From IMG/VR virus record IMGVR_UViG_3300009093_000036, positions 32,001 through 96,000 of that record: a stretch of 64,000 bases of DNA; one strand, written 5' to 3'. Each line of letters starts with the position of its first letter. The first letter of the stretch is position 1. Made by a program: the position numbers and the translations under genes. The notes below the pieces were generated by a model. The model was not told where the DNA came from. It did no database searches and was given only the letters and a program-made list of their open reading frames with translations. This DNA comes from a virus. Positions 2,597 to 45,968 of the stretch are shown here, piece after piece.

Positions 2597-2597
2597 G

Positions 2598-2819
2598 TCA
2601 CCCCGCGAGGAAGCTCTCGATGTCGTTGGTCACGAGCACTTCTGCCTCCGCCGTGTTCTGGCGAGACAAGCGCTCGGAGCCGGTGCGGCCGCGCAAAACC
2701 GACTTCAGGTACGTGGCCTCGTCCGTGAGCCGTGCATGCTCATGGTCGTAGAACTCGTTGAACGCAGACTGGAGGCGGTCCAGTTTCGCGTTGCGGTCGG
2801 TGGTGCGGTCGTCGGGCAC
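2598..2819 (-). CDS. hypothetical protein, 73 aa
   Basis: GTG start with TAGACT-N6 upstream; stop abuts next start. Confidence 0.65.
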   Translation of the reverse strand: MPDDRTTDRNAKLDRLQSAFNEFYDHEHARLTDEATYLKSVLRGRTGSERLSRQNTAEAEVLVTNDIESFLAG

Positions 2820-2849
2820 CGCTGAAGTCTACGCTGAGATGGGCAAAGG

Positions 2850-2870
2850 AAAAAGGCGGCCGTAGCCGCC
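2850..2870 (-). terminator. intrinsic terminator after sigma gene
   Basis: GGCGGC-TACG-GCCGCC followed by TTTTT on minus strand; C(UACG)G tetraloop. Confidence 0.8.
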
Positions 2871-2874
2871 CCCT

Positions 2875-3663
2875 TCACACGCCGCCGAGATGCGGCTTCA
2901 CCTTCTTGTAGATGGCTCCACGAAGCCGGTAGACCTGGTTCTGGTTCATCCCCGTCTTCTTCGCGATCTGCATGATGCTCGGGGGATCGCCGACCGTCGG
3001 AAAGAGCTGGTCGAAGACCTTCTGCTCTTCGCTCGTCAGCAGCGCCGGCATCAGCGAGATGATGCTCCGGACCTGGCTCGGGGCATGACCCAAGCTGCCG
3101 TCCTCGGCGTCCGGGTTCGGATTGCCTCCGATGAAGTGCTCGGTACGGAACTCCGACATCATCGGCCGCAAGTCGCTGGCCGGGATGTCGGGAAGCAGCT
3201 TCTTCATGTCTTCGTACATGGGCTCGTGCCCGTGCTGCTCCATGAACTCGTGTCGAGCGTTCATGAACTTCTGGAACTTCTCGACACGCGGCTTCGGGAC
3301 GTACGCGAAGTTGCGGTTGCCTCCGACGAAGTCGGTGATGCGCTGGAAGTTCGTGATGACGTGCGTGCGGATCTTCGTCCCCTTCGTCGGGTCGTAGGAC
3401 TCCAGCCCCTTCTTCGCCGCGACTCGGAGCTGCTGCTCCAAGGCCGAGTAGGGGATCGAGCCACCGAGACCGTTCAGCTTGCGCTTCGCGAACGACTGGA
3501 TGGTCGGTTCGAGAGCATCGAGAAGCGGTTCGAGATGCTTCGCCTTCTTCCCGCTGTCGTTCCAAGCCTTCCAGAGCGCGTAGTGCGGGTCGGAGACTCC
3601 TCCGCCCGTGATCTTCCGCGCATCCTGGTTGAACTTGTCGAACGGGCTTCGCGTCTTGGTCAT
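2875..3663 (-). CDS. phage sigma70-family (group 3/FliA-like) sigma factor, 262 aa
   Basis: region 2-like GLESYDPTKGTKIRTHV, region 3-like HGHEPMYEDMKKLL, region 4 HTH LTSEEQKVF...SIMQIAKKTGMNQNQVYRL. Confidence 0.8.
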   Translation of the reverse strand: MTKTRSPFDKFNQDARKITGGGVSDPHYALWKAWNDSGKKAKHLEPLLDALEPTIQSFAKRKLNGLGGSIPYSALEQQLRVAAKKGLESYDPTKGTKIRTHVITNFQRITDFVGGNRNFAYVPKPRVEKFQKFMNARHEFMEQHGHEPMYEDMKKLLPDIPASDLRPMMSEFRTEHFIGGNPNPDAEDGSLGHAPSQVRSIISLMPALLTSEEQKVFDQLFPTVGDPPSIMQIAKKTGMNQNQVYRLRGAIYKKVKPHLGGV

Positions 3664-11123: not shown

Positions 11124-11668
11124 CTACGCCCGAAGAGAAGATCAAGAAGCTCGACTTCACGAAGGTAACGCGGGACGCCGACAAGACGCGCACCAGGATT
11201 CTCATCAAGCCCCGCTACGGGATGCAGAGCTTGGAGATCGTGTGTGGTCGCACCAACCTGAACCGCAACCGAGACCGTACGCCTTCATACGAACGGCTCA
11301 CGGCCCGGGCTTCATACGGTGTCATCGACTTCGAGCACGACAGCGCGTACATCTTCCAGATCCCGCTCGTCGGTGTAGCACTCGACTTTGTCGAAAACTC
11401 GACCGTCTACTACAGCGGGATCCTGTTGGGACGCGACCCCGAAGACCTCCGCATCTCGTTGGACACCGACTACGATCCGACGAAGCTGAAGGGCGCCTAC
11501 AAGTGCAACGGGAAGGAGTGTCGCTCAGGCAAGTCGCACATGATCGTTCCCGAAGGGTACTGGGCGGGCCCGGAGATGAAGGTCCAGACCCTCTACTTGC
11601 AGCTCGTTGGTGCCGAGGTTTCCGTGATCTTGAGCACGCCAAGCAAGGAGGACCCTGACCACGGCTGA
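11120..11668 (+). CDS. hypothetical protein, 182 aa
   Basis: ATGA overlap with NADAR gene. Confidence 0.7.
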   Translation: MTTPEEKIKKLDFTKVTRDADKTRTRILIKPRYGMQSLEIVCGRTNLNRNRDRTPSYERLTARASYGVIDFEHDSAYIFQIPLVGVALDFVENSTVYYSGILLGRDPEDLRISLDTDYDPTKLKGAYKCNGKECRSGKSHMIVPEGYWAGPEMKVQTLYLQLVGAEVSVILSTPSKEDPDHG

Positions 11669-11675
11669 GACGCCT

Positions 11676-11746
11676 GCCCCCGTAGCTGAGCGGGAAAGCA
11701 GCGGATTCTAAATCCGTGGTCGTGGGTTCGATCCCCACCGGGGGCG
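11676..11746 (+). tRNA. tRNA with CUA anticodon (amber suppressor-type)
   Basis: acceptor GCCCCCG/CGGGGGC, D-arm with GG, anticodon stem GCGGA/TCCGT with loop TT-CTA-AA, 4-nt variable loop, T-arm GTGGG-TTCGATC-CCCAC, G73, no encoded CCA. Confidence 0.9.
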
Positions 11747-11768
11747 AGCAGAAGCAATCACGTTTCTT

Positions 11769-21214: not shown

Positions 21215-21250
21215 GAAGAGGGACTGGCTGATGCCGGTCCCTCTTCTTTT
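21215..21250. terminator. terminator between convergent genes
   Basis: GAAGAGGGACTGGC-TGAT-GCCGGTCCCTCTTC-TTTT. Confidence 0.8.
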
Positions 21251-23813: not shown

Positions 23814-24043
23814 CGGATGGCCTCCAGGACGATCTGGCGTTCCCGGTCCTTGTGGGCGCGGTAGAACTTGACGGCGTCCCGCATCACCCCCGTGAACCCC
23901 TTCGGGTGGTTCTCGGCCTTCGCGAGGGACTCCAGCCACTGCTCGTCATCGCGAGGAAGACGGATCGTCCGTGGGCTGGACATCGTGTCGAGAGGCTCTG
24001 TCTTCTCAGGAGCCTTCTTTTTGGGCTTGGGCTTGGGAGCCAT
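23810..24043 (-). CDS. ribbon-helix-helix DNA-binding protein, 77 aa
   Basis: RTIRLP strand, RDDEQWLESLAKAE helix, FTGVMRDAVKFY helix. Confidence 0.7.
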   Translation of the reverse strand: MAPKPKPKKKAPEKTEPLDTMSSPRTIRLPRDDEQWLESLAKAENHPKGFTGVMRDAVKFYRAHKDRERQIVLEAIR

Positions 24044-24080
24044 GGCCCAGAGCATACGAGAGCATACAGCGCCTCGTCAA
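24044..24080 (-). promoter_or_regulatory. sigma70-type promoter, leaderless, with tandem GTATGCTCT repeats
   Basis: TTGACG-N18-TATGCT-N7-ATG. Confidence 0.7.
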
Positions 24081-24337
24081 GCGAGTTCGAGCGCGTGCAT
24101 CCCGTTCAGGTAGCTGTCGAGGCCCTTCACCTCGGGGAACATCTCCTGAAGACGACGCACTACATGCTCGTGGATGGCGTCGAGATCGGCAGCGGTGTCG
24201 GTGACGCCATTCATCGCGATGATCGTCTTGAGCTCGTTCTCCAGCGACGACTTCAAGAGCGGGTTCGTCGCGAGCCAGAGAGGCAGCCACGTCCAGCGGA
24301 TCTCGAACGCCCCGTCGATCAGCTCCACGATCCTCAT
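24077..24337 (-). CDS. hypothetical protein, 86 aa
   Basis: ORF between virion gene and RHH promoter. Confidence 0.7.
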   Translation of the reverse strand: MRIVELIDGAFEIRWTWLPLWLATNPLLKSSLENELKTIIAMNGVTDTAADLDAIHEHVVRRLQEMFPEVKGLDSYLNGMHALELA

Positions 24338-24347
24338 GCGGCCCTCT

Positions 24348-26000
24348 TCATGACGAGCGGACGGTAGCAGCGATCAGATGCGCCGTACCAGGCATCGTGT
24401 CGTTGATGTTCTCCCAAGCCCGCTCCACCGAGAACCAGAAGGGGGCGTTCGCAACCAGCCCACTGAGCTGGAAGGGAACCTCGACGATGACGTTCTTCGC
24501 GGAGAAGTTCGCTGTCGCCTCGACGATCGTCGCCGACCCCAAGTTGTACGGGTTCGTGCCCGGGCCCAGGGAACCGTAGCGGACACGGAAACGAACGGTC
24601 GTGCCCGGGCCAGCATCAGCGTCGCCCGAGAACGAGAGACGAAGCACGGGGGCGGCAGCAGACGCGTAGCTGCGGAAGAACGCCCGCACGAACCGCCCGC
24701 CGATGCTCGCGACGATGTTGCGCAGGTACGACTGAAGCGTCGAGCCCTCGAAATCTCCGAAGGCCATGCGGAACGTCGGGCTCGCTCCGCCAGGTTCTCC
24801 AGAACCCCAGTTCGACGGAGCAACAGGGCCCGTCAGGATCGGGATAGCAAGCACACCCTCCGAGGCCCCGATCTTGAGGCCCGCGTAGAAGGTCACCCAC
24901 GCCGAAGGCGGTGGAGAAGTGACGTCGTGAAGTGTGCTTCCGGTGAGAGTCTGCATGTTGAGCAGCCCCGCACGAGAGCGCATCTTTATGCCGTGGTAGT
25001 TCGCGGATGCCCCAGGAGCACCATCTGCAAGCAGACCGAACCCCTTCTCATCCGAGACCACCGAGGAAGAATCGGTACGGACCTGCGCATACAGGTGGAT
25101 CTCGGTGAAGGCAGAGCCGAGCGTGACTTCCTTCAGGAATGCATCAGCGACCGTGGTGGTGATGGAGAGGACGCCACCGTCGATCAGCGTGTACACACCT
25201 CCGCTTCCGAACCCCGTGAACCCCGCCGCCAGAGGCAACTGCCCGAAGCGAGCGTCGTACTCGATGACGACGTCGCACTTGTCGAACGGGATCGTGGAGA
25301 TCGCGCTCGTGCCGGGCTGCGAGACCGGGTTCGCAGCGCGCAGGTTCTCCTCGACGACGATCGGAGGAAGGCCGTTGAGATCTGCTTCGTGGGGGTAGTG
25401 AATCTGCACGGCGGACTCCAAGAGGATGTTGGCGAGCGGGGAGGACGTCCCCGAGCACACGTCGACCAAGGAGACCACGAAGGTGCCGTCGTAGTCCACA
25501 TCGGGCAGGAGAGCTCGCAGGATCCCGGCCACGGGAGTTCCCGGGCTCTCCGCGGTGACGTCCGGGGTCGGAGCTGCGAGAGGAAGGGGGTCGCCACTGT
25601 AGATCGTGGGGCTGACGTCCACACGAATCCCCAAGGTAGCGTTCTCGAAGCGGATGCGGACGCACCCCAGCAGTGTCGTGTCGGTCACCAACACGAAGAT
25701 GCTGTCACCGAGGACGTAGCTGCCGAAGAAGCCGATGCCGCTCAGGACGACGTCGCTTCGCACCCTCGAACAGCTCTCGCAGACGATCTGCTTGTGGGTC
25801 CGTGCAACATCGACCTCGAACTGCCCCCAGGTGCCGGAAGCTCCCGAACCGAAGTAGGTGCCGTACGGCGTCGACCCGAAACCACCGTAGGCGCCGTTGT
25901 CGAAGAGCACCCACTGCGTCGCCGGCTCGATGAGCGTGATTCGTTGGTCCCGGAACTTCCGGTACCCACACACGCACTTCATGTTCGGATCGGCGGTCAT
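24348..26000 (-). CDS. putative virion/tail protein, 550 aa
   Basis: beta-rich with lectin-like C-terminal half; N-terminal CxC...CxxC; TGATG overlap. Confidence 0.55.
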   Translation of the reverse strand: MTADPNMKCVCGYRKFRDQRITLIEPATQWVLFDNGAYGGFGSTPYGTYFGSGASGTWGQFEVDVARTHKQIVCESCSRVRSDVVLSGIGFFGSYVLGDSIFVLVTDTTLLGCVRIRFENATLGIRVDVSPTIYSGDPLPLAAPTPDVTAESPGTPVAGILRALLPDVDYDGTFVVSLVDVCSGTSSPLANILLESAVQIHYPHEADLNGLPPIVVEENLRAANPVSQPGTSAISTIPFDKCDVVIEYDARFGQLPLAAGFTGFGSGGVYTLIDGGVLSITTTVADAFLKEVTLGSAFTEIHLYAQVRTDSSSVVSDEKGFGLLADGAPGASANYHGIKMRSRAGLLNMQTLTGSTLHDVTSPPPSAWVTFYAGLKIGASEGVLAIPILTGPVAPSNWGSGEPGGASPTFRMAFGDFEGSTLQSYLRNIVASIGGRFVRAFFRSYASAAAPVLRLSFSGDADAGPGTTVRFRVRYGSLGPGTNPYNLGSATIVEATANFSAKNVIVEVPFQLSGLVANAPFWFSVERAWENINDTMPGTAHLIAATVRSS

Positions 26001-26410
26001 CAGTGCCCAAGGATGGACTGAAGCAGGGCCACGATGCCAGTGATCAGTCCGAAAATGCCCGTGACGACCGCGATGATGATCGGGGCGGTGGTCTTCCACC
26101 ACTCCAGGCCGATCTTCTTCTCCTCGTGGTGCTGCGTACGCACCTCTTTGACCTCGGCGAGCGTGCGTGCCGTGTCCTCTCGTCCATCCCGAACACCCTC
26201 CTGGTGCCCTTCGAGCTTGGCGAGACGAACAGCGATCGCACTGACGTCCTTCTCGATGTCGTCGGCCTTCTTGGTGAAATCCTTCTGCGAGCTCTCGACG
26301 TGCTCGACGCGGGTCGTCAGCCCAGTGAGCATGAAGTTGAAGCCCGAGAAGCCGCGGCGCACCCGCTGCTCCAGTTCACGAAGCTTGGTGATGAAGTCTT
26401 CACCCGACAC
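26000..26410 (-). CDS. holin-like protein (coiled coil plus single C-terminal TM), 136 aa
   Basis: APIIIAVVTGIFGLITGIVALL TM after a long coiled coil (XhlA-like architecture). Confidence 0.5.
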   Translation of the reverse strand: MSGEDFITKLRELEQRVRRGFSGFNFMLTGLTTRVEHVESSQKDFTKKADDIEKDVSAIAVRLAKLEGHQEGVRDGREDTARTLAEVKEVRTQHHEEKKIGLEWWKTTAPIIIAVVTGIFGLITGIVALLQSILGH

Positions 26411-27221
26411 GGTCGGCCTCCTCCTCGCTGATCATGTCTAGCACCGCGGCGCGAGCTTCCGAGAGGTTCGTGGGCATCGGCATGCCCGGAGGAACCGAAG
26501 CCTCCCGTACCGCCTTCAGCGCCGCCTCCGAAATCGGTTTCGTTCGGGGCGGAGACTCGTCGTCGAGCTGGAGGTAGCTGCGGATCTCCCGCAACGCGAT
26601 GTACGCCCCGTCGTTCGTGAGGATGTCCTGAACCGCCTCCGCCTGCGATGGAGCGTTCTTCATGAGATGCAGCCGCACCTTCGCGATCGCCTCCTCGATC
26701 GTCGAGATGTGCCGAGACAGGATCCCCGTGTCGACCGGCGGCGGTGTCGAAGACCGTCCGGGGCGCTCTTCGATGGTCCGAAGACTCGCCATGGAGGCTC
26801 GCGTGAGCTTCTTGGCGGTGAGGTCGTTGATCTTCCGCTCTCGGGCGTAGAAGATCTCGCGTTCGAGCTGCTCGGGGGTCAGGCCCGGCTTCTTCACGAG
26901 GTAGCTCTGAGCTCCGGCACGAACTGCCAGAATCGCCGTCTCCATGTCCTCGCGGCCCGAGAGCACGATGACCGGAACGTTCGGCGACACCTTCAACACC
27001 TCGACGAGGGTGTCGATGCCCTGGCTGTCCGGAAGTCCGAGATCGAGCAGCACGACGTCGAACTTCTTGTTCGACAGGAGCATGGTGGCCGTCTTCAGCC
27101 AGGTCGCAACCTCGACTCCGACCCGCAGCAACGTGGCCTGAAGGAGCCTCGACTCGATGAAGGCGGCGTCGGGAGCACTGTCCTCGACGAGAAGCACGTG
27201 GATGGGGATGGCCATGTTCAC
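26400..27221 (-). CDS. response regulator, REC plus unknown C-terminal domain, 273 aa
   Basis: VLLVED, DVVLLDLGLPD, VIVLS, YLVK. Confidence 0.9.
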   Translation of the reverse strand: MNMAIPIHVLLVEDSAPDAAFIESRLLQATLLRVGVEVATWLKTATMLLSNKKFDVVLLDLGLPDSQGIDTLVEVLKVSPNVPVIVLSGREDMETAILAVRAGAQSYLVKKPGLTPEQLEREIFYARERKINDLTAKKLTRASMASLRTIEERPGRSSTPPPVDTGILSRHISTIEEAIAKVRLHLMKNAPSQAEAVQDILTNDGAYIALREIRSYLQLDDESPPRTKPISEAALKAVREASVPPGMPMPTNLSEARAAVLDMISEEEADRVG

Positions 27222-27625
27222 CTCGCCGGTAGCTTCGAGACCTGGAACCAGTACGCGCCCAGGATAGCTACCATGTCCCGAAAAGTCGTGAGCGACATCG
27301 GCTTGATGAGGTAACCCGAAGCTCCAGCTCGATACGCTCGTTCGATGTCATCGAGTGACGACGAGCTCGTGATGACGACCACGGGGATCGACTTCGTGAG
27401 CTCCTCGACCTTCAACTTCGCGAGGAGCTCGAAGCCGCTGATCTTCGGCAAGTTCAAGTCGAGCAAGATGAGGTCGACGAGCTCGTGCTCCAGCATCTTG
27501 CTGGCTTCGTCGGCTGTCACCGCTACACGCATCTCTACGCGATCGAGCGCCGAGAACGCCTTCCTGGCGAGGACGACGTCGGGAGCGTTGTCCTCGACCA
27601 GTAGAACGCGGTGCTGCACGGTCAT
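27218..27625 (-). CDS. single-domain response regulator (Rcp1-like), 135 aa
   Basis: VLLVEDN, LILLDLNLP, IPVVVITSS, DIERAYRAGASGYLIKP. Confidence 0.92.
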   Translation of the reverse strand: MTVQHRVLLVEDNAPDVVLARKAFSALDRVEMRVAVTADEASKMLEHELVDLILLDLNLPKISGFELLAKLKVEELTKSIPVVVITSSSSLDDIERAYRAGASGYLIKPMSLTTFRDMVAILGAYWFQVSKLPAR

Positions 27626-29085
27626 GCCTTGGGGAGGGTAAAAGAAAGGGTCGTTCCGTGGCCCTTGCCTCCCGATTCCGCCCAGATGTCACCGCCGTGA
27701 GCTCGGACGATTCTCTGGCACAGCGAGAGCCCGATGCCGGTCCCATCATACTCCGCCGTCGTGTAGAGGCGGTAGAAGGGAGTGAAGATCTTCGTGAGGA
27801 AGGCGGGCTCGATCCCGAGTCCTCGGTCTGTAACCTTGATCAACCACATGCGACCCGCGTCGCTCGCCGTCACACGGATGTGCGGAGGCGCCTCACTGTC
27901 ACCCTTAGGGGTGAACTTCACGGCGTTGCTGAGCAGGTTCTGGAAGACCTGCACCATCATGCCGGCATCGCATGTCACCGAGGGAAGGTTCTCCGTCGTG
28001 ATCTCCGCCTTCGACTCGTTGATCGAGACGCGAAGGTTCTCCTTCGCGATCTGAACGAGCCGCTCCAGCGACACGTTCTCCTGCGGGTTCATGTTGTTGC
28101 CGGCCCGGCTGAACCGAAGAAGGTCGTCGACGAGGTCCATCGCCCTCTTCGAGGCTGTCTCGATGAAGCCTCGATACTGCTGGGCCTCCGGAACGTTCTC
28201 GAAGAGGTGCCCGTACTCCTCGAAGAGGAGCTGCGTGTAGTTGCTGATGACTCGCAGGGGCTCGCGCAGGTCGTGCGAAGCGACGTGGGCGAAGTTCTTC
28301 AAGTCGGAGTTCGACTGCTGAAGCTTCTTGGTGAGCTGGACCTTGTCGTCGATGTCGATGAGGACGTGCATCATCTGCACGAGCTTCCCACCCTCGCGAT
28401 AGATCTGTGCTCGATCGATCACGGCCACCACACGGCCATCCGGCTTCACCAGCGAGAACTCCAACTCGACGTTGGAGACCTCCGGGTTCGCGAGGGCACG
28501 TTCCATGAGCGCACGAACGTCCGTTACGTCCGCCGGTGAGATCTTCGAGTAGAAGAGGTCGAGCGACGTTCCCAGAGACGTGGATGCAGCTCCGAGGTCG
28601 AGCATCTGTCCGACGCCAGCGTCCCAGCTCTGCATGTTCATGACGTAGTCGAACCACCACATCCCAGCCTTGGCAGATTCCAACGCCAGCGAGAGGCGGC
28701 GGTTGGTGTCGTGGACCTCCGTGATGTCCTCGAACATCGACGCAGCGACGCGAGTCCCCATCGGCAGAAAGTACATGCGGTACGTCCTTCCGAAGATCGT
28801 CCCGAGCTCCACCTGCTTCGGGTTCTGTGACTGAGCGGTCTCGTAGAGCGTCTGAACGAAGTCGGCGTTCGGCTCCTTGCCCTGCTCGGCCGTGATCTCG
28901 CGGAAGGTCTTCCCTTCCACGTGCTCGCGAGCCATGCCGTATCCCGAGACGATGCTCTTGACGCCCCACTCGTTCATGAAGACCAACTTCATATCTTGCG
29001 GGGAGGTTGCGCCTTCGGCATCCCAGACACCGATCGCGATCGGCACCTGGTGAAGCAGGGCATGGGCGAGTACTTCGTTCATCAC
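27622..29085 (-). CDS. cytoplasmic PAS-PAS sensor histidine kinase, 487 aa
   Basis: H-box ASHDLREPL, N-box QNLLSNAVKF, DRGLGI, IFTPF, GTGIGL; two PAS-like N-terminal domains; no TM. Confidence 0.93.
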   Translation of the reverse strand: MMNEVLAHALLHQVPIAIGVWDAEGATSPQDMKLVFMNEWGVKSIVSGYGMAREHVEGKTFREITAEQGKEPNADFVQTLYETAQSQNPKQVELGTIFGRTYRMYFLPMGTRVAASMFEDITEVHDTNRRLSLALESAKAGMWWFDYVMNMQSWDAGVGQMLDLGAASTSLGTSLDLFYSKISPADVTDVRALMERALANPEVSNVELEFSLVKPDGRVVAVIDRAQIYREGGKLVQMMHVLIDIDDKVQLTKKLQQSNSDLKNFAHVASHDLREPLRVISNYTQLLFEEYGHLFENVPEAQQYRGFIETASKRAMDLVDDLLRFSRAGNNMNPQENVSLERLVQIAKENLRVSINESKAEITTENLPSVTCDAGMMVQVFQNLLSNAVKFTPKGDSEAPPHIRVTASDAGRMWLIKVTDRGLGIEPAFLTKIFTPFYRLYTTAEYDGTGIGLSLCQRIVRAHGGDIWAESGGKGHGTTLSFTLPKA

Positions 29086-29089
29086 AGCC

Positions 29090-29374
29090 TCACGACCGGA
29101 AGATCTTGGAGATGCAGTAGTCCGACGTCGTCACGCCGAACACACCGGGCCCAGGGTAGCTCTTGCCTGTGGTGTCGGGATAGAGCGTGGTCCACGACAC
29201 CAACTTGGTGGCCACGGAGTCGTAGACGCGATTCTCCACAGCGAAGACGGAAGGGTTCCTCCAGAACTCGCGAGGAGCCCACCTTACCGACAACGAGAAG
29301 GCCGGCTCTTGGTTCGCGCGAAGCGTCCAGAACTCCAGCGGGGCCCACCGAACTGAAAGCGTCGTCAGAGCCAT
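29090..29374 (-). CDS. small protein with a duplicated LSVRWAPxEFW motif, 94 aa
   Basis: internal repeat visible in translation. Confidence 0.65.
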   Translation of the reverse strand: MALTTLSVRWAPLEFWTLRANQEPAFSLSVRWAPREFWRNPSVFAVENRVYDSVATKLVSWTTLYPDTTGKSYPGPGVFGVTTSDYCISKIFRS

Positions 29375-29377
29375 GGC

Positions 29378-30427
29378 TCACCCGAGGCTGGGAAGGGTGT
29401 TGGCGAGCCAGGGGACCAAGAGGCAATCGACGAAGACACGGGCCTCCGTGGCGTTCGTCGGGTCGTGACGAGCCGGCCACGAGCGGAAGGCGACGCCACT
29501 TCCCCGAAGTCGAAGAGAGGTCCCCTTCGTTCCCTGGCGAGCGGCATAGCTCGATGCGGGACGAACCCACGCGAGCTCGATGCTTGGCTCTGCCAGATCG
29601 TTGGGATCCGGCCCTACCCCCGTCAGCGTGTTCAAGCCCGAAGCCGGAACGTACGTCGAAGAGGAGTTCGTTCCTTGCGCCACCAACACCCACTCGTCGA
29701 AGCTCTCCGACGTGAGGTTCATCTTGTACCAGCCGAACCAGGTCGTGCTGTTGAAGAGAGAGGTTGCGCTCAGCGGACCACCACTGGCCGGGAACCAGGT
29801 CATGATGATGGGGTCGGCATCGAGGGCGTTGAACGAGCGGAGGGTCTCGAACATGACGACCATAGAGATCGAAGAGTTCGATGGGCCCGTGGCCCATGCG
29901 TAGAACGTGTAGCAGTCCGTGTTCGCGGCATCGGAGTATGCGAGACAGTGGAAACGCGTACCCGAAGTGGTGGACGGGTTGGTGACGCTGGTGAACGCGT
30001 TCGCAGCGCCGAGAACCTGACCCTGATCAGTGGCACTGGGAGGCACGGTCGCGCTGATCGCACCGAACCCAGTGCCGATGAACGTATCGAGGGCGGAGTA
30101 GTAGATACGCCACTGCGTGTTGCTCGTGCCGCGCTGGATGAGGATCTGCCGCTTGTTCGCCGGACAGCGCAGAACGATCCATGCGTTGTTCCGATCGAAA
30201 CCTCCTGTGCCCGTTCCCGTCCCCGTGATCTGGTTGTTCACGTTGCCAGGCGTCGTAGAGAACGTTCCGCCGGTACCTGTTCCCGAGGCGAAGTGAGTCC
30301 AGCCCGCGGTGAGAAGCGTCTGGATGATGTTCCACAGGAACTCGACGACACCGGAGCCCGAAGGCTGCGGGTTCGGAAAGTTGATGGAGCTCGCACTGTC
30401 GATGGAGCGTGTCGTGATCTTCGCCAC
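29378..30427 (-). CDS. putative tail fibre/receptor-binding protein A, 349 aa
   Basis: G/T/S-rich beta protein, paralogous to 30438..31430. Confidence 0.6.
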   Translation of the reverse strand: MAKITTRSIDSASSINFPNPQPSGSGVVEFLWNIIQTLLTAGWTHFASGTGTGGTFSTTPGNVNNQITGTGTGTGGFDRNNAWIVLRCPANKRQILIQRGTSNTQWRIYYSALDTFIGTGFGAISATVPPSATDQGQVLGAANAFTSVTNPSTTSGTRFHCLAYSDAANTDCYTFYAWATGPSNSSISMVVMFETLRSFNALDADPIIMTWFPASGGPLSATSLFNSTTWFGWYKMNLTSESFDEWVLVAQGTNSSSTYVPASGLNTLTGVGPDPNDLAEPSIELAWVRPASSYAARQGTKGTSLRLRGSGVAFRSWPARHDPTNATEARVFVDCLLVPWLANTLPSLG

Positions 30428-30437
30428 TTCGTCCTCC

Positions 30438-31430
30438 TCACGGGCTCGGCGTCGTGCCCTTGGGCCACGGGATGGCGAAACCGTTGTAGTAGACCCATGC
30501 GAGGTCGCTCGACGGGTGCTGCACGACGTCCGGGTAGTTACGAGCGATGATCGTCTTCTCGGACAGGTGATGCGAGAGCCCGAAGAAGAGCCCCGGGTTG
30601 CCGCTGCCCTGATTCAGGAAGCGCATGTACCTCACAGCGATGATGTCGTCACCACCGTCGTAGTCGTTCGCCCCCATACCTCCGGCGCTGATGCCGCTCG
30701 CATCGCTGATCGTGTTGCCGGAGCCGTTGTTGGTCCCGAACCGAGCGCAGATGATGGGGATGAGCGTGCGAGTGCTCAGGGTGGGCGAGTAGAGAAGCTG
30801 CATCGTGACCGAGAGCGAAGAGCTCGACCCCGCGGGAGAAGCCGTGCCCTGGAAGGCATGCCAGACGCACGGGTCGATCACACTCCCCAAGCTCGCGTAG
30901 CGGCTCTCGTCGGTTCGTGAAGAGAGCGGATCGCAGCAGATGAAGTCAGCGCGAGTGCTCGTGCTCTGGATGGTCCGGATGAGCCAGAAGCCCCACACAC
31001 CGTTGATGGCGGTGTCTTCGACGACGGCATGCGTGTAGATCAACGCGCTGGTGTTGAAGTTGCCCGAGCTGATGATGGTGACCTCATCCGTTGCCGTCGG
31101 ACGAGCGGAGGCTCCTGGAGAGCCACCCGTGAAGCGAGCCGAGTAGCTGTAGTAGAGGCTCCAGACTGACGCCGAGCTCTCGCGCTTGATGATGATCTCG
31201 CGGTTCCCGCTCGGGTCACGTAGACGCACCCAGCGGTTCGTGCCGTCGAGTCCTCCGGTACCCGTGCCACCGGAAACCACAGGCCCAGCCGCGCTGTTCG
31301 AGAACGTTGTGCCGTCCCCTGAGCCCTGCTGCGTCCAGCCCACGGAGAGAAGCGCGGTGACGAGGGTGTACCAAGACACGCCCATGGTGGCCGCCACCTG
31401 ATTCACGAGCGAATGTGTCGAGACCGTCAT
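30438..31430 (-). CDS. putative tail fibre/receptor-binding protein B, 330 aa
   Basis: shares LLxxGWT..SG.G, TGTGG.D..N.W..LR.P...R.I.I.R, W..YYS with protein A. Confidence 0.6.
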   Translation of the reverse strand: MTVSTHSLVNQVAATMGVSWYTLVTALLSVGWTQQGSGDGTTFSNSAAGPVVSGGTGTGGLDGTNRWVRLRDPSGNREIIIKRESSASVWSLYYSYSARFTGGSPGASARPTATDEVTIISSGNFNTSALIYTHAVVEDTAINGVWGFWLIRTIQSTSTRADFICCDPLSSRTDESRYASLGSVIDPCVWHAFQGTASPAGSSSSLSVTMQLLYSPTLSTRTLIPIICARFGTNNGSGNTISDASGISAGGMGANDYDGGDDIIAVRYMRFLNQGSGNPGLFFGLSHHLSEKTIIARNYPDVVQHPSSDLAWVYYNGFAIPWPKGTTPSP

Positions 31431-32026
31431 CAGCTCACCTCGATGCCTGCCCAGTGGATCTTGACGAGATCACCGAGGGTGGCGGCATCCAAAATAGCAC
31501 GGAGCTCGTATACCCGAGCGGTGTTGAAGATGGTGTTGGTGTTGACACCCGGAGACGCCGTCTTGGTGAGACCCTGCTGACGGTCGAGGATGTTCGAGCC
31601 CGCCGAGAAGTTGATGGAGAGCGTCGACCGAAGGACCGGCGTGATGGCGGCTCCACCCACGGGCCCTGTGTCGTAGAGGCGAACACGAGCATCGCCCGAG
31701 GTCGCAGGACTGAAGCGGCCGAACATGTGGAAGACGCTCGTCTGCTTCGTACTGCCGTCGAAGATGAAGCCTCCGATGACGACCTCGACGTTGATGAGCG
31801 AGATGTCCTGATTCAGCGCCCCGACGAAGGTGCCCTTCGCTGCGGTGCCGACATCCGACCACGTCGCCGGGTACGTCGCGCTGTCGCACTTGCGGTAGAG
31901 CAAGCTCGTCGTGTTGTAGTAGATGTCGCCCTGTCGCAGAAGTGGTTCAGCCGCAGCCGTACCGTAGTCCGTGGTGGAGGGCGGCCAGAAGCGGTTCTGC
32001 TGGGCCGGGAGGGACTTGGCCGTCAT
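31430..32026 (-). CDS. putative tail fibre-associated protein, 198 aa
   Basis: GDIYYNTT..LY..C...W motif typical of fibre segments. Confidence 0.55.
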   Translation of the reverse strand: MTAKSLPAQQNRFWPPSTTDYGTAAAEPLLRQGDIYYNTTSLLYRKCDSATYPATWSDVGTAAKGTFVGALNQDISLINVEVVIGGFIFDGSTKQTSVFHMFGRFSPATSGDARVRLYDTGPVGGAAITPVLRSTLSINFSAGSNILDRQQGLTKTASPGVNTNTIFNTARVYELRAILDAATLGDLVKIHWAGIEVS

Positions 32027-33840
32027 GCTCCACCACCCGTGTCGTTGATGTTGTTGTCGAACACGGTGTTGGTATCCGTACCGTCTGTGTCGAAGGGGGT
32101 AGTGACACCCTTGAAGGTGCAGAACTGGATGTCGTTCGAGTCGATGGTGCCCAACCCACCGCTCGCAACTAGCACTGCCTTCGAGAAGTTCCTGATGCTC
32201 AGCCCGTGGATCTTGTTCCGATTCAGGTTGCCCCCGGAATCGGTGGCGAAGAGCACTGCCCCCGTGCCGAGCGAGGACATCCCGTCGACGTAGCCACCCC
32301 GCACGCTGCAATCGATGACTCGGTCGGAAGGGTCACCATCGCCGAAAGAGAAGGCAGCTCGACCGAAGGCATCAGTGGCCGTCCACACCACCGTCGGAGA
32401 GATGATCTGCACTCCCTGCGCCTGTCGGTAGAGGAGGAAGCCCGTCTCCAGTGCATCCGTCGGTGCACACTCCACGAAGTAGCCCGGGCCGTAGTCGGAA
32501 GAGAAGCCGATGTCTCCTCCGCGCGTGATGTCGAAGGTGCTGGTACGGCAGCGGATGACGTAGAACGGGTCGAATCCCGAAGTTCCTGTTCCGTAGAAGC
32601 AGGTGAGGACGCCGCTACCCGAAGTGATGAAGCTGGGCGGCCCGTAGATCACGACGTCTTCGAGAATCGCCCCTCCCGCGAACTGAACGACGCTGTGGAT
32701 GTTGCCGAAGTTCACCGAAGCTCCGGTCAGGATCGTCCCCATGTAGATGTCGATGTTCTTGATCCGGCTGACGCTGCTCACATCGACGAACGTGGTTTCA
32801 GAGCCTCCGTTCATGGAGCCTGGGGCGTCGATGAAGATCGTGAGGTTCTCGACGGACCCGCCCTGGATGTTGAAGATCGACATCGACTGGCCGACCCCCG
32901 GGGTCATCCGGGCAGTGAGGGTGCAGCTTGCCTTACTGGCGAAGATCAGGCGGGCATTGTTGATGACGAGCGGCGTGGAAGCACTGTCACTTGCGTTCAA
33001 CGTGTAGTTGCCTGGGCGAACGAAAACGTCACCACCCTGGCCACCGAGAGAAGCGAGTGCGGCGACGATGCCGAGGCAGTTCCCGTTGTCGAGGAAGTCG
33101 CAGTCAGCAGCCGTGTCTCCTTGACCCGAGCAGCCCACCACGACCTTGTTGTACTTCTTGCCGCTGACCTGGACGGGCTTGTAGTTGGTGCCGTCGTACT
33201 TCAGCACTGAGCCCGTCGCCGGCGACGCCGCTGAAGGGTCGATCGCGATGCCGTAGAGCTTGGCGACCCGCGGGTTCGGGTACGTCAGGGCGAGGTCACC
33301 ACCAGCCGGACCGGATGGAGGGCCCGAGGAGCCGATCGAGCTCTCGACAGCCTGCACGATCTCCCACGCCCACTCCGACCAGCCCGCCCAGTTCTGCTCG
33401 GAGACGCCGAGGCCTGAGCGGTTCGGGTAGAGAGCGTTGTCGGTGGCGAGGTCAGCATCGTGGACGCTGAGCTTGTTCGCCTCCGGAGCGGTCTCGACGT
33501 AGACCGGAACACGAAGTTGAGCGTTCAACGTGCGCACCGAGGCGATGCGACGAGACTTCGTGATGACGCCGTTGTCGTTGACGGTGAGCTCGATCAAGAA
33601 CGAGCTCGGGCGCACGATCAGCCCAGCGATGCCGATCGTGACCGTCTGCCCGGTGCTGCTCGACAGCACTGCGGAGGAGCCGCGCTTGTCGATGATCTCC
33701 CACGTGTACGTGACACCAGCTCCCGGAGCCGGACTCGTCGCGTTGAGCGTGATGATCTCGCCGGGGATGAGATCGTGGCGCGAGCGTCCCGCTACCCCTG
33801 CGCCGGGGGTGACCTGGTCGATGCGGAACTGTGCCGGCAT
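32023..33840 (-). CDS. tailspike-like protein (N-terminal Ig/PKD-like, C-terminal beta-helix), 605 aa
   Basis: TYTWEI...LSSSTGQTVTI PKD-like segment; DVFVRPGNYTLN start of a pectin-lyase-like helix; TATCCT-N6-ATG. Confidence 0.65.
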   Translation of the reverse strand: MPAQFRIDQVTPGAGVAGRSRHDLIPGEIITLNATSPAPGAGVTYTWEIIDKRGSSAVLSSSTGQTVTIGIAGLIVRPSSFLIELTVNDNGVITKSRRIASVRTLNAQLRVPVYVETAPEANKLSVHDADLATDNALYPNRSGLGVSEQNWAGWSEWAWEIVQAVESSIGSSGPPSGPAGGDLALTYPNPRVAKLYGIAIDPSAASPATGSVLKYDGTNYKPVQVSGKKYNKVVVGCSGQGDTAADCDFLDNGNCLGIVAALASLGGQGGDVFVRPGNYTLNASDSASTPLVINNARLIFASKASCTLTARMTPGVGQSMSIFNIQGGSVENLTIFIDAPGSMNGGSETTFVDVSSVSRIKNIDIYMGTILTGASVNFGNIHSVVQFAGGAILEDVVIYGPPSFITSGSGVLTCFYGTGTSGFDPFYVIRCRTSTFDITRGGDIGFSSDYGPGYFVECAPTDALETGFLLYRQAQGVQIISPTVVWTATDAFGRAAFSFGDGDPSDRVIDCSVRGGYVDGMSSLGTGAVLFATDSGGNLNRNKIHGLSIRNFSKAVLVASGGLGTIDSNDIQFCTFKGVTTPFDTDGTDTNTVFDNNINDTGGGA

Positions 33841-33944
33841 GCCGGCAGGATAGCCCGACACACCCCGAAAGACGAAGCCCCCACGTCGCGCCTGACGTGA
33901 GGGCTTCTACCCTAGCGAGCCAAGTGCTCCTGGGGCGTGAGGAT

Positions 33945-34406
33945 TCAGCGTACGCCGGGCAGCGAGCTCAGGTCCAGCGGGATCCGCTCGGTGGCGAAGG
34001 AGAGATCCTGGTTCCACTGCCGAGTCGTGCTGCCGACCAGCCCGTACCAGATCTCTCGAAGCTCGTCCTTCCAGTAGCTGTTGCGATAGAGCCCGAACAC
34101 CGCCGGCTTGGCGTCCTCGGCTCGAACGACACCACCATCGCGACGCCTGATGCTCGCGCCGTAGATCCAGCCGCCTCCGAGAGCGTCGCTCACACGTCGA
34201 AGGTCAGCGGTCACACGAAGACCGAAGCCGGCGTAGGGCAAGACGAACACGGGACCTGGCGAGCTAGGCCAGAGGTCTTCTCGAAGACCATCGAGCGGGA
34301 ACTTGACGGGCCCTTCTCGACGAACGATGCGTCCGCCCGTGAGGGCCGACCAGCCCGAGGGAAGAGCCCTCGGGCTGTACGCGAGCATCGCCTGCTCAGG
34401 GCTCAC
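33945..34406 (-). CDS. hypothetical protein, 153 aa
   Basis: GTGA overlap. Confidence 0.65.
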   Translation of the reverse strand: MSPEQAMLAYSPRALPSGWSALTGGRIVRREGPVKFPLDGLREDLWPSSPGPVFVLPYAGFGLRVTADLRRVSDALGGGWIYGASIRRRDGGVVRAEDAKPAVFGLYRNSYWKDELREIWYGLVGSTTRQWNQDLSFATERIPLDLSSLPGVR

Positions 34407-35338: not shown

Positions 35339-36100
35339 TCACTCCACGGTGCGGACGGTCCAGAAGTCGTCCGCGAGGTTCGGGTTGGTGAGATACCCGT
35401 ACGGGATCGTGAAGTAGCCGGCCTGGCCCCACGCCGAGCCCCACGAGTTGCGGACGATGAAGCGCTCGGTGCTGTCGTCGTAGCCGACACACAGGACGGC
35501 ATGACCGCCCAGCATCTGCTCGCCGACCGCCGGAAGGTTGAGCACGCCGGTCTTGGCGACCTCGGCGCTCTCGAAGCTCTCGTAGACGGAGAAGCCGAAG
35601 ACGAACGGGAAGCCCGCCGCGAGGCAGCTCTTCATCGCGCTGAGGCTGGTGCTGACGATGCGCTTGTATGAGAGCGCCTGATGGAGGGCGGCTTCCTTGT
35701 ACGCCTTCGCCGTGGGCTTCAGCTTGAACTTCGTGATGCGGTACGGCCACGTCGTCTCCGCGCACGCCCCGAGCTTCACGACGCTCTTGATGCCGTCCCG
35801 GATCTGAGCGCCAGCGTCGGAGGCGACCGTGCCCTCCATGCTGCGCTCGTTGTAGTAGATGAAGAGCCGCGACGGTGTGAAGAAGAGCCCGAGGTGCTCC
35901 TTGTGGTCGGCGAACGCGAGGGCCGCCGCGATCGCGTTGCCGGTGCAGCTTCCGAGCTGTCCCTGGTCGTAGACCGGCGGGCACTCGCTGCGGAGGTCGA
36001 CCGCCGGGGGCAGTGCGACCGCGCCGTCGATGAAGTACTGATCCCGGTGATCGGGGACGTCGGGGCGCCAGGTGTACTTGCGATGGATGCTCTTGCTCAC
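35339..36100 (-). CDS. papain-like C1A cysteine peptidase, 253 aa
   Basis: VDLR, DQGQLGSCTGNA (Cys), GGHAVLCVGYD (His), VRNSWG (Asn). Confidence 0.93.
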   Translation of the reverse strand: MSKSIHRKYTWRPDVPDHRDQYFIDGAVALPPAVDLRSECPPVYDQGQLGSCTGNAIAAALAFADHKEHLGLFFTPSRLFIYYNERSMEGTVASDAGAQIRDGIKSVVKLGACAETTWPYRITKFKLKPTAKAYKEAALHQALSYKRIVSTSLSAMKSCLAAGFPFVFGFSVYESFESAEVAKTGVLNLPAVGEQMLGGHAVLCVGYDDSTERFIVRNSWGSAWGQAGYFTIPYGYLTNPNLADDFWTVRTVE

Positions 36101-36110
36101 GGGATCCTCC

Positions 36111-36491
36111 TTACAGCCAGCGAAGGGCTGCGTAGTTGATGGCGAGGTGTAGCGCGTTGTCGGCGATGATGAAAAGCCACGTGCTCATCCACGTCGGCTT
36201 CTCTTCATCGTACCCGGTCGCGTTCGTCTTCGCCCACACCGGCCACGCACTCGGAGGGGCCAGGAAGTTCTTCGCGAAGCAGACGTAGCGAGCCACCGCG
36301 AGATGGTCGATCAGAGCGTGCGTCTGCATGATGACGAACCATGCGACGAACGACGGGTGCAGCAGCACGAAGGGCAGCGAGTACGTGACGGCGTGGATGA
36401 ACGCGACCATGTACGACTTGCGTTTGTTCAGCGCCATCCAGTCGCTCTGGAGGATGTAGTCGCCGAACACGTGAGCGAGAAGCTGTTCCAT
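36111..36491 (-). CDS. DUF3307-like membrane protein, 126 aa
   Basis: LLAHVFGDYILQSDWMA..K, H..ID, ADNALH. Confidence 0.8.
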   Translation of the reverse strand: MEQLLAHVFGDYILQSDWMALNKRKSYMVAFIHAVTYSLPFVLLHPSFVAWFVIMQTHALIDHLAVARYVCFAKNFLAPPSAWPVWAKTNATGYDEEKPTWMSTWLFIIADNALHLAINYAALRWL

Positions 36492-36793
36492 CAGTCCTTC
36501 GTAGCCTCGTTCATCCGCGCCAGGAAGCTGTCGGCCATCTCGCGCCCGAGAGCACGAGCCTCCTCCACCGCCCCAGCCGGGTTCATCTTGGTGAGCGCCC
36601 CGACCGCAGCACTGGCCGCGACGCACCACGCACCTTCGACACGGACGCCGACGTCCTCGAACTTCGGCATCGGATGCCCGCTGACGGCCTTCCAGTCGAC
36701 GCTGTCGCCGTAGGCTTCATACATCGTCTTGGCGAGCTCACGCCACGACGCACGGAAGTCATCACTGAGCTGCTCTGCTTTCGTCATGTTCAT
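36491..36793 (-). CDS. hypothetical protein, 100 aa
   Basis: TGATG overlap. Confidence 0.7.
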   Translation of the reverse strand: MNMTKAEQLSDDFRASWRELAKTMYEAYGDSVDWKAVSGHPMPKFEDVGVRVEGAWCVAASAAVGALTKMNPAGAVEEARALGREMADSFLARMNEATKD

Positions 36794-37773: not shown

Positions 37774-38427
37774 TCAGTGGTAGATGCTGAGCAGAAGGCT
37801 CCGGTCGGAGTCCGTGATGTGTGGAGGGAACCCGCCTCCCGTAGGATGCAGGTCCGGTGACATGATGCTGACGTCGTTGACGTCGGTCTCGTCCGCCAAG
37901 CCGAGGCAGTGCCCGAGCTCGTGCTGAAGAGCGAGGTCCAACATCTCTGTCGTCCCCGTGTTGGCGGTCTCGATGCAGCAGGAGTCGTGGCAGCGCCAGG
38001 CCCGTCCTCCCGGCTCGTGGCGCCAGCTCGGATCGAGAGGGACACCGACGATGATGTGGATCGAACACTGGTCGCCAGCACGCAGCACCTGACGGCCGAG
38101 GCGTTGGTTGATGGTGTTGACGGCATCCGCGACGGCCTGGGCATCCTCGTGCGTCGCGTTGGTCCAGGCGTTCTCGTCTTCCCCGATCCCGGCCACATGC
38201 TGAAGCACCTCGGCGATGTGTAGATCGGTCGTGTACGTGTTCGCGCAGACCCCAACCGGCACAGTGAGCCGACCAGCCGTCACGTCATCCGGAATCAGGT
38301 TGAAGTGCGGGTCGAGACCAGCCTCCGTGTGCGTCGTGACGCCGTAGACGATGAGACCGATCACGACGGCGGTGAAGATGCCGATGATGATGGCCATGAA
38401 CTTCCAGCTCTTGATGAAATCCCACAT
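37774..38427 (-). CDS. membrane-anchored metzincin-like zinc metalloprotease, 217 aa
   Basis: N-terminal TM; HELGHCLGLAD zinc motif and SIMSP Met-turn. Confidence 0.8.
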   Translation of the reverse strand: MWDFIKSWKFMAIIIGIFTAVVIGLIVYGVTTHTEAGLDPHFNLIPDDVTAGRLTVPVGVCANTYTTDLHIAEVLQHVAGIGEDENAWTNATHEDAQAVADAVNTINQRLGRQVLRAGDQCSIHIIVGVPLDPSWRHEPGGRAWRCHDSCCIETANTGTTEMLDLALQHELGHCLGLADETDVNDVSIMSPDLHPTGGGFPPHITDSDRSLLLSIYH

Positions 38428-38447: not shown

Positions 38448-38455
38448 CTGATAGG
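38448..38455 (-). promoter_or_regulatory. CCTATCAG promoter-like motif
   Basis: upstream of 38427 start. Confidence 0.55.
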
Positions 38456-45692: not shown

Positions 45693-45881
45693 CTACCACA
45701 GCCGCGGGTTCAGCACCGCGCTGTGCCCGGTGATGGCCGAGAGCAGCCACAACACGAGGAAGACGACAGCGATCACGTAGATGACCTTCTTGATGTTGGC
45801 GTCGATCCACGGGAGCATCGAGATCGCCCACAGAAGGACACCGAAGCCGAGAAGAATCGCGATGAGGGTGAGGAGGGTCAT
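45693..45881 (-). CDS. small two-TM membrane protein (Thivi_2564-like), 62 aa
   Basis: LIAILLGFGVLLWAI..LPWIDANIKKVI.VIAVV..VLWLL; GGAGG SD. Confidence 0.75.
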   Translation of the reverse strand: MTLLTLIAILLGFGVLLWAISMLPWIDANIKKVIYVIAVVFLVLWLLSAITGHSAVLNPRLW

Positions 45882-45968
45882 GCCTCCCGCAACGCACAGA
45901 GCGGGCCGGCGAATCACAGCGTTCCCGGGTCGCAGGCGTGACAGCCACGCCCCACCTGCGACCCACCG

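Follow-up and report, generated by a model that had tools for sequence, protein, structure and literature searches.

Bacteria sense chiefly by means of two-component systems, and the locus described here raises the question of what such a system does in the genome of a phage: does it belong to the phage, is it functional, and on what does it act? The locus lies in a window of 64,000 nucleotides, the whole stretch of DNA that was analysed, which comprises bases 32001-96000 of a single contig of 195,355 bp with 62.5% GC. This contig (G000), from a large uncultured soil phage, is an IMG/VR virus record, IMGVR_UViG_3300009093_000036, with a CheckV completeness of 100%. Its minus strand encodes a sensor histidine kinase (HK), a single-domain receiver (REC), a second receiver with a C-terminal output domain X (REC-X) and a tail-anchored protein (TA). 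We regard it as highly probable that a functional, phage-specific two-component cassette is present. The best explanation of the whole, a phage-owned and self-contained two-component system of these four genes, is favoured by a small degree over its being wrong. The features are located in the window as follows.

27622..29085, minus strand: HK, 487 aa, PAS-PAS-DHp(HisKA)-CA(HATPase_c) according to Pfam, sequence motifs and an AlphaFold2 (AF2) model
27218..27625, minus strand: REC, 135 aa, a single Response_reg domain, Rcp-like, with D56 as phospho-acceptor
26400..27221, minus strand: REC-X, 273 aa, Response_reg at residues 9-111 (60.5 bits), with D60
26403..26849, minus strand: X domain, residues 125-273 of REC-X, from the family profile and AF2
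26000..26410, minus strand: TA, 136 aa, a cytoplasmic coiled coil (about residues 1-105) and a single transmembrane helix (111-129) according to hydropathy

The kinase is of the class I HisKA type, with the H-box histidine in the DHp domain and the N, G1, F and G2 boxes in the CA domain. Pfam assigns HisKA with 46.9 bits (cut-off 26.9) and HATPase_c with 92.3 bits. His271 of the H-box, within S-H271-D-L-R-E-P-L, is invariant in the six orthologues aligned, as are N383/N387 of the N-box, D420/G422/G424 of G1, F434/F437 of the F-box and G448/G450/G452 of G2. The likely start codon is the ATG at 29082. No transmembrane segment is predicted in the protein, which should therefore be soluble. The second PAS domain is recognised by PAS_3 with 25.8 bits, barely above the cut-off of 25.6; the first, N-terminal one is recognised only by PAS_7 (E 0.0019), which is below the Pfam cut-off, and has no match among the PDB sequences. 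The AF2 model, which is of moderate confidence (pLDDT 68), predicts two domains of PAS topology, residues 13-119 and 140-244, each with the order beta-beta-alpha(n)-beta-beta-beta and pLDDT values of about 70-88, followed by DHp and CA. The label PAS-PAS is thus partly model-based, the second copy being taken from Pfam and the first, putative one from the model.

The small receiver REC matches Response_reg with 77.7 bits, and the receiver residues E11/D12, D56, T86 and K108 are all present. Its top PDB relatives over residues 3-134 are 6xvu, 8avv, 5te9, 1k68, 1k66 and 1jlk/1i3c. These best solved relatives are phytochrome-associated regulators (RcpA, RcpB, Rcp1, BphR-like), and the alignments cover the C-terminal extension as well. 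The partner kinase has no Pfam match to GAF, PHY or PAS_2; REC is Rcp1-like by sequence, yet it stands outside phytochrome systems. In the whole genome only two receiver domains were found, those of REC and REC-X. The original prediction of an intact, phage-encoded kinase with two receivers is borne out by the catalytic residues, by the chain of overlapping stop and start codons and by the virus record itself.

A peculiarity of the small receiver gene was seen in three related loci (loci outside the window carry our own numbers, L001 and so on). In L004 (9564-10016), L007 (9583-9999) and L012 (9570-10004) no stop codon closes the kinase frame where the catalytic domain ends, and the frame continues for about 100 Pro/Gly/Arg-rich codons over an intact small-receiver gene. 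Because the kinase frame is open across it, the receiver gene is missed or shortened in public gene calls. In DNA so rich in GC, the run-on may be nothing but a shadow frame that happens to stay open; it could also be a genuine overlap or a site of frameshifting.

In REC-X the receiver residues E13/D14, D60, S88 and K110 are invariant in 16 family members. Past residue 111 no Pfam match was obtained. The AF2 model has a receiver with pLDDT values over 90; behind it come the long alpha5 helix (116-151), a linker, flexible or disordered, and the helical X domain, which has a three-helix bundle at residues 164-216 (pLDDT about 85) and two weaker helices of lower confidence. Foldseek and PDB matches of REC-X cover only the receiver part, and the long alpha5 resembles that of dimeric regulators with coiled-coil linkers. 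For X itself no relative was found in Pfam, in a PDB profile search (E<0.1), in the ESM Atlas or by Foldseek. Members of the family share the motif L-x-K-N-A-P ... E-x-R, and their X domains have isoelectric points (pI) of 4.8-7.2, most of them being acidic (pI 4.8-6.2). As the original prediction had stated for the two receivers, no DNA-binding output domain is detectable by Pfam in the cassette proteins.

Two further roles were considered for X. A histidine phosphotransfer (HPt) carrier was rejected, as H171, the only conserved histidine of the domain, is replaced by Q or Y in orthologues that are 65-66% identical, and DNA binding is disfavoured by the acidic domain and by the lack of a helix-turn-helix (HTH) match. 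HPt families were also not found in any of the four cassette proteins with Pfam and PHROGs. The pathway would therefore be a branched two-component pathway rather than a His-Asp-His-Asp phosphorelay, and the term complete phosphorelay, under which the locus was first described, is wrong in the strict sense.

TA is the fourth member of the cassette. An open reading frame (ORF) with a C-terminal transmembrane helix lies directly 3' of REC-X wherever the downstream DNA or the gene calls could be read, and in an alignment over 10 loci this helix is conserved. Only seven residues follow it in the window protein. TA matches phrog_5225, a family of unknown function, and neither a holin PHROG nor a Pfam family; a TA profile retrieved generic coiled coils only from the PDB. 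The gene had been called holin-like before. This assignment was dropped, since the transmembrane helix sits at the extreme C-terminus, a charged C-terminal tail is missing and no endolysin family match is adjacent; what is encoded is a tail-anchored coiled-coil protein without holin topology. A u-spanin or i-spanin was rejected as well, as there is no N-terminal signal, lipobox or N-terminal transmembrane helix. The most holin-like ORF of the window is found 19 kb away from the cassette, at 45693-45917 on the minus strand; it encodes 74 aa with two strong transmembrane helices and has no PHROG match.

The four genes are part of a string of eleven minus-strand genes, which runs from 33861 to 24077 and in which starts overlap or spacers are at most 10 nt long. 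A gene call based on codon-position GC likewise gives a nearly continuous minus-strand gene run over the cassette region. The order in the string is a spike-like protein of 612 aa, proteins of about 198, 330, 349 and 94 aa, HK, REC, REC-X, TA, and proteins of about 550 and 86 aa. HK and REC overlap by ATGA, REC and REC-X by GTGA (with an alternative ATG 6 nt later), REC-X and TA by 11 nt, and TA and the next gene by TGATG. Copies of the promoter-like motif CTAT[C/A]AG, which recurs in this phage, are absent between 20318 and 38448 of the window. Because of the tight chain and the missing motif the cassette is likely to be co-transcribed with the spike-like genes.

Two putative signals were noted around this string. 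At 21215-21246, between convergent genes, a strong GC-rich hairpin of 14 bp is accompanied by a T run; the long minus-strand unit with the cassette is likely to end here. Just 5' of the GTG start of the spike-like gene, at 33870-33946 on the minus strand, there is a hairpin-like element, GAAGCCC...GGGGCTTC, with GTCTTTC after it; as a possible terminator or attenuator, the element may set the spike-kinase string apart from the preceding genes.

Is the cassette a peculiarity of one genome? The order HK-REC-REC-X-TA was found in at least 16 distinct loci of uncultured phages with genomes of 37-196 kb (L001, L003, L004-7, L010, L012, L015, L016, L018-23, L055, L135 and L136). The window, L001 and L003 form a clade of 195-kb phages, and a second group of 114-186 kb comprises L004-7, L012, L018, L020 and L023. 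Contigs of 33-63 kb (L010/11, L015, L016, L019, L021, L022) and two shorter ones (L135 with 15.8 kb, L136 with 11.5 kb) carry the cassette as well, and in L055 it is located on a 5.8-kb contig that was binned into a metagenome-assembled genome of Mycobacterium. Three loci, L008/9 and two JGI contigs, contain REC-X and TA without a kinase. In sum, about twenty uncultured phage lineages besides this one have the module. Assemblies made independently from different samples (IMG/VR 3300049792, SRR15882510 and others) contain the same genes with the same flanks. The synteny in related phages that the original prediction proposed to look for thus exists, and it extends to distant phages.

Contigs as long as 196 kb carry full-length orthologues of HK, with identities of 87, 68, 67, 57 and 55%. 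The next matches are generic cellular PAS kinases, the best of which shows 39% identity over 63% of the query. Full-length relatives of REC-X reach down to about 30% identity. The sensors vary among the loci, and REC, REC-X and TA are constant: the sensor part is PAS-PAS in the window clade, one PAS in several loci, REC-PAS in L136, an ETR1_N-type membrane domain in L010 and a single transmembrane helix in L016, and it is missing in L018 and L019. This combination of constant and variable parts suggests one conserved output process that is addressed by lineage-specific signals. The ETR1_N-type sensor of the L010 kinase (2024-3121), which is ethylene-receptor-like and replaces PAS, is unusual in a phage.

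How far the output side is confined to phages was examined by several searches. A profile of X alone retrieved 51 clusters from 1.84 billion cluster representatives. All full-length matches are proteins of 234-318 aa with X behind REC, and four shorter ones look truncated. The TA profile retrieved 16 clusters, and each one with an examined contig lies in the module. The genome scans for the REC-X family used the full-length alignment as query, not X alone. Among the genomes of 185,579 species the L055 contig gave the only full-length REC-X, all other matches ending at the receiver, and in 50,697 GenBank phage records no match covers the full-length protein. A megablast search of window positions 24000-34000 against GenBank phages returned zero matches. 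The best structural match of REC-X in BFVD is UniProt A0A8S5LY51 from uncultured Myoviridae sp. ctrnx29 (298 aa). It aligns over 292 columns, nearly the whole length, with E 2.7e-9 and 17% identity; its name, 'Response regulator protein', is automatic, and it is probably a member of the REC-X family.

The cassette has a GC content of 0.61-0.62 and resembles the flanking genes in this value and in codon-position GC. In comparison to L001 the ratio of nonsynonymous to synonymous substitution rates (dN/dS) is 0.115 for HK, 0.108 for REC, 0.086 for REC-X and 0.149 for TA, at dS values of 0.6-0.77. In a tree of kinase cores with 17 phage sequences two label changes are needed, and a tree in which the 17 phage cores were forced together scores 8.7 log-likelihood units above the free tree (approximately unbiased test, p 0.69); as the cellular kinases in this tree are the best matches of the window kinase, a single origin is neither rejected nor proven by it. 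One old acquisition with subsequent spread among phages is compatible with these data. By all appearances the cassette is old, under selection and phage-resident, and neither a recent host capture nor a chimera.

What the cassette does can be proposed as a sequence of steps. We infer the routes of phosphotransfer, the contact between X and TA, late expression and the membrane process. The cassette would be transcribed together with the tailspike-like genes, and the soluble kinase would sense a cytoplasmic cue via its PAS domains, other phages using a different sensor module. Autophosphorylation at His271 would be followed by phosphoryl transfer to D60 of REC-X and D56 of REC, with the single receiver probably acting as a competing sink or threshold setter. 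A phosphorylated REC-X dimer could then shift its long alpha5 coiled coil and reposition the X domain, whose target would be the coiled coil that TA exposes to the cytoplasm at the inner membrane face. Because of the strict co-occurrence and the translational coupling TA is the most likely direct target of REC-X. The prediction of a complex between X and the cytoplasmic part of TA gave a score of 0.01, which counts neither way. We give even odds to a membrane output by way of TA. TA would finally tune a membrane-linked step of the infection, for which lysis timing is the leading candidate, or else superinfection exclusion or another envelope process.

Lysis timing, which was already part of the original prediction, is a tentative idea and rather doubtful. 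It draws on two or three of about 20 contexts, in which lysis genes adjoin the cassette. In L008, REC-X and TA are followed by a 69-aa holin-like protein with two transmembrane helices, a lipoprotein and an Amidase_2 endolysin, the only case of a lysis cassette right next to TA; a 24-kb myophage contig has baseplate and fibre genes, then REC-X and TA and, a few genes on, SLT; and in L016 a holin-like gene with two transmembrane helices precedes the kinase. The topology of TA and the mixed contexts elsewhere speak against this part of the prediction. The furthest-reaching version, an autonomous decision circuit of many phage lineages with a swappable sensor for the state of the infected cell, in which phosphorylated REC-X acts on TA to set the breach of the envelope and which would represent a new class of holin regulators, we consider slightly more doubtful still.

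Several points weigh against the four-gene system and its proposed output. TA shows no holin hallmarks, having no charged C-terminal tail and one transmembrane helix at the extreme C-terminus, and a better holin candidate exists elsewhere in the window (45693-45917). An endolysin was not found next to the window cassette, and Amidase_2 is absent genome-wide. A Pfam survey of 95 flanking ORFs at nine loci of smaller phages gave mixed functions, including Thy1 (ThyX), DUF3310, HTH, HNH, DUF932, integrase, capsid, tube and one amidase. Because of these heterogeneous flanks the cassette appears to behave as a mobile unit rather than as a part of a lysis module. The model of X is of moderate confidence only (pLDDT about 85 at residues 164-216 and lower after), and the kinase tree with its choice of cellular sequences has to be added to this list.

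Other explanations start from the host. Two-component genes are typically cellular and the genome is a metagenomic assembly, so the cassette might be passive cargo or an artefact, that is a recently captured host operon or chimeric host DNA. This is highly improbable: genes and flanks are shared by independent assemblies, the composition is that of the neighbouring genes, and within the phage clade identities between orthologues fall as low as 55%, the closest kinase of cellular origin being the distant one mentioned above. Near-identity to one host locus, named in the original prediction as a sign of passive capture, was not found. REC-X is absent from cellular genomes save the L055 contig, and the dN/dS values are about 0.1. 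A more serious rival is that the cassette rewires two-component networks of the host, either by a kinase that targets host regulators or by receivers that drain host kinases, for example so that a stress response, a developmental response or an abortive one is blocked, with TA merely localising the components. Single-domain receivers of the Rcp/DivK type are classic sinks and connectors, which counts in favour of this idea, and in the three loci without a phage kinase the phosphoryl group of REC-X would have to come from host kinases or small donors. A similar role has been proposed for the phage AgrC and the phage 'phoR' (PMC3901668, PMC10987575). We nevertheless consider it unlikely, as HK, TA and the two receivers have stayed linked in at least 16 loci under purifying selection, as in a closed cognate circuit, and as the phage kinase cores group together and not with any host lineage. 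The hosts are probably diverse, which also argues against one host target.

A further possibility is that X binds DNA, RNA or a sigma factor or RNA polymerase of the phage, so that REC-X regulates late genes and TA sequesters it. The core of X is a small three-helix bundle, a shape common to many HTH and sigma-binding modules, and the phage has the recurrent promoter-like motif already described. Sequestration of regulators at the membrane by a small anchored partner is moreover a known logic from anti-sigma factors. However, X has no match to HTH or other nucleic-acid-binding families, no PDB or Atlas relative, and is acidic in most members, and the module occurs also in phages of 37-60 kb with an integrase, where no polymerase gene was seen in the stretches fetched. 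This explanation appears to be even less likely than the rewiring of host networks, and the phage-owned four-gene system remains the one that we prefer.

Branched pathways of one kinase and two receivers are well known from Caulobacter (DivJ/PleC-DivK-PleD), from LovK-LovR and from cyanobacterial Cph1-Rcp1. Like the pathways of DivK, LovR and Rcp1, the cassette combines a HisKA kinase with two receivers, one CheY-like and stand-alone, the other bearing the output. The solved relatives of the small REC include PleD/DivK besides the phytochrome-associated receivers, and the long alpha5 coiled coil of REC-X is found likewise in the dimeric DgcR, WspR and a dual-sensor kinase. In contrast to these pathways the cassette is phage-encoded, has no phytochrome or GAF module, uses X rather than GGDEF or a DNA-binding domain as output, and has a tail-anchored membrane protein as an obligatory fourth partner.

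Viral HisKA/HATPase_c kinases or receivers as such have been described before, and they are common to the earlier cases and the cassette. The C. difficile phage phiCDHM1 encodes an AgrC-like kinase without a response regulator (PMC3901668), contigs of soil phages carry 'phoR'/'phoB' as auxiliary genes (PMC10987575), and the parts available to us of a survey of jumbo phages mention receivers only as a non-canonical cREC domain (PMC7824862). Phaeoviruses and giant viruses carry hybrid kinases according to BFVD matches. Those earlier viral genes are single genes that are thought to feed host pathways, whereas here a closed cassette with a phage-only output domain is found. Nothing specific on a phage cassette of kinase and regulator or on phosphorylation-controlled lysis was found in the literature, and we know of no holin system that is controlled by phosphorylation. 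The holin/antiholin clocks (lambda S105/S107, T4 T/RI) are similar in that small phage membrane proteins are set by a regulator. TA, however, has a topology opposite to that of known holins and i-spanins: its N-terminal part forms a large coiled coil on the cytoplasmic side, its transmembrane helix is at the very C-terminal end, and it has neither signal peptide nor lipobox.

New is therefore not the chemistry, which is ordinary two-component chemistry, but its phage-only package, to which a novel output domain and a novel partner belong. The two-component parts known from phages so far are stray single genes, which were assumed to feed host pathways. A cassette that travels together, with swapped sensors and a phage-only output, points to an undescribed regulated and signal-dependent decision during infection. 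If the output were lysis timing or exclusion, the physiology of the host would be tied to the life history of the phage by a new mechanism, and X would also represent a new class of response-regulator output. The cassette is compact and soluble except for one transmembrane helix, and is therefore directly testable in vitro.

The remaining genes of the string, which flank the cassette, are the following.

32023..33861, minus strand: tailspike-like protein, 612 aa, first gene of the string, with a C-terminal right-handed beta-helix
31430..32029, minus strand: ORF of about 198 aa, read from the sequence, whose ATG at 32029 overlaps the stop of the spike gene
30438..31430, minus strand: Ser/Gly/Thr-rich protein, 330 aa, paralogue of 29378-30427
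29378..30427, minus strand: Thr/Ser-rich protein, 349 aa, paralogue of 30438-31430
29090..29374, minus strand: ORF of 94 aa directly upstream of HK and unrelated to the cassette; L003 and L007 have weak relatives of it in the corresponding place
24348..26000, minus strand: protein of about 550 aa, Cys-rich at the N-terminus (CxC...CxxC) and beta-rich in its body
24077..24337, minus strand: conserved protein of 86 aa, last gene of the string, identified by synteny, with a weak HTH_70 hint (E 0.018)

Neither the first gene (32023-33861) nor 29378-30427 or 24348-26000 has a Pfam or PHROG match. The look-alikes of the first protein in the ESM Atlas are phage beta-helix and tailspike clusters (residues 196-609, TM-score 0.69 by target), which is a lead only. 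Its N-terminal 165-220 aa are 47-66% identical to the N-termini of proteins of 708-1444 aa at the same position in relatives. A conserved N-terminus of about 220 aa heads much longer or shorter proteins with a variable C-terminus. A conserved anchor with a variable tip is the usual pattern of fibres and spikes. The two paralogues at 29378-31430 share 27% identity over the full length (E 3e-15), and both are missing from the closest relative L001, though the adjoining kinase is 87% identical there. The protein of 30438-31430 may be a receptor-binding or fibre protein, and it appears to be hypervariable, as expected for genes of host range. The upstream region can reasonably be called a putative tail fibre or spike region. 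The position of the kinase next to tail fibre genes, as originally described, thus holds in so far as the cassette is in the same tight string as tailspike-like genes; the label itself comes from the beta-helix look-alike and from the variability.

Downstream of TA, the protein encoded at 24348-26000 has relatives with 29-77% identity at the same position in L001, L003, L004, L012, L020 and L023, and its conservation 3' of TA is limited to the clade of large phages. It had been taken for another virion gene, a label for which no recognisable family gives support. Among about 30 neighbouring genes PHROGs and Pfam were blank for almost all, and across the 195-kb genome the Pfam families Baseplate_J and Amidase_2 gave nothing even at permissive thresholds. 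In this phage group, virion and lysis genes are evidently very divergent.

Two proteins with a possible role at the envelope were noted. The first, at 37774-38427 on the minus strand (217 aa), has an N-terminal transmembrane anchor, a HExxH metallopeptidase motif and a weak Peptidase_M10 match, and its gene is located directly behind the promoter-like site CCTATCAG (38448-38454). In L015 a 192-aa protein with an N-terminal transmembrane helix and a HExxH motif is encoded after TA (11184-11762). Both are possibly signal-anchored envelope hydrolases. The same minus-strand run encodes a cysteine protease of the papain family at 35339-36100 (Peptidase_C1, E 1.8e-16; phrog_16701 'peptidase'). It is adjoined by a DUF3307 membrane protein (36111-36629), which is 75% identical in L003. 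Outside this run, ARAGORN predicts a tRNA with the anticodon CUA at 11675-11747 on the plus strand, which is labelled Pyl and would be an amber suppressor; the genome otherwise uses the standard code.

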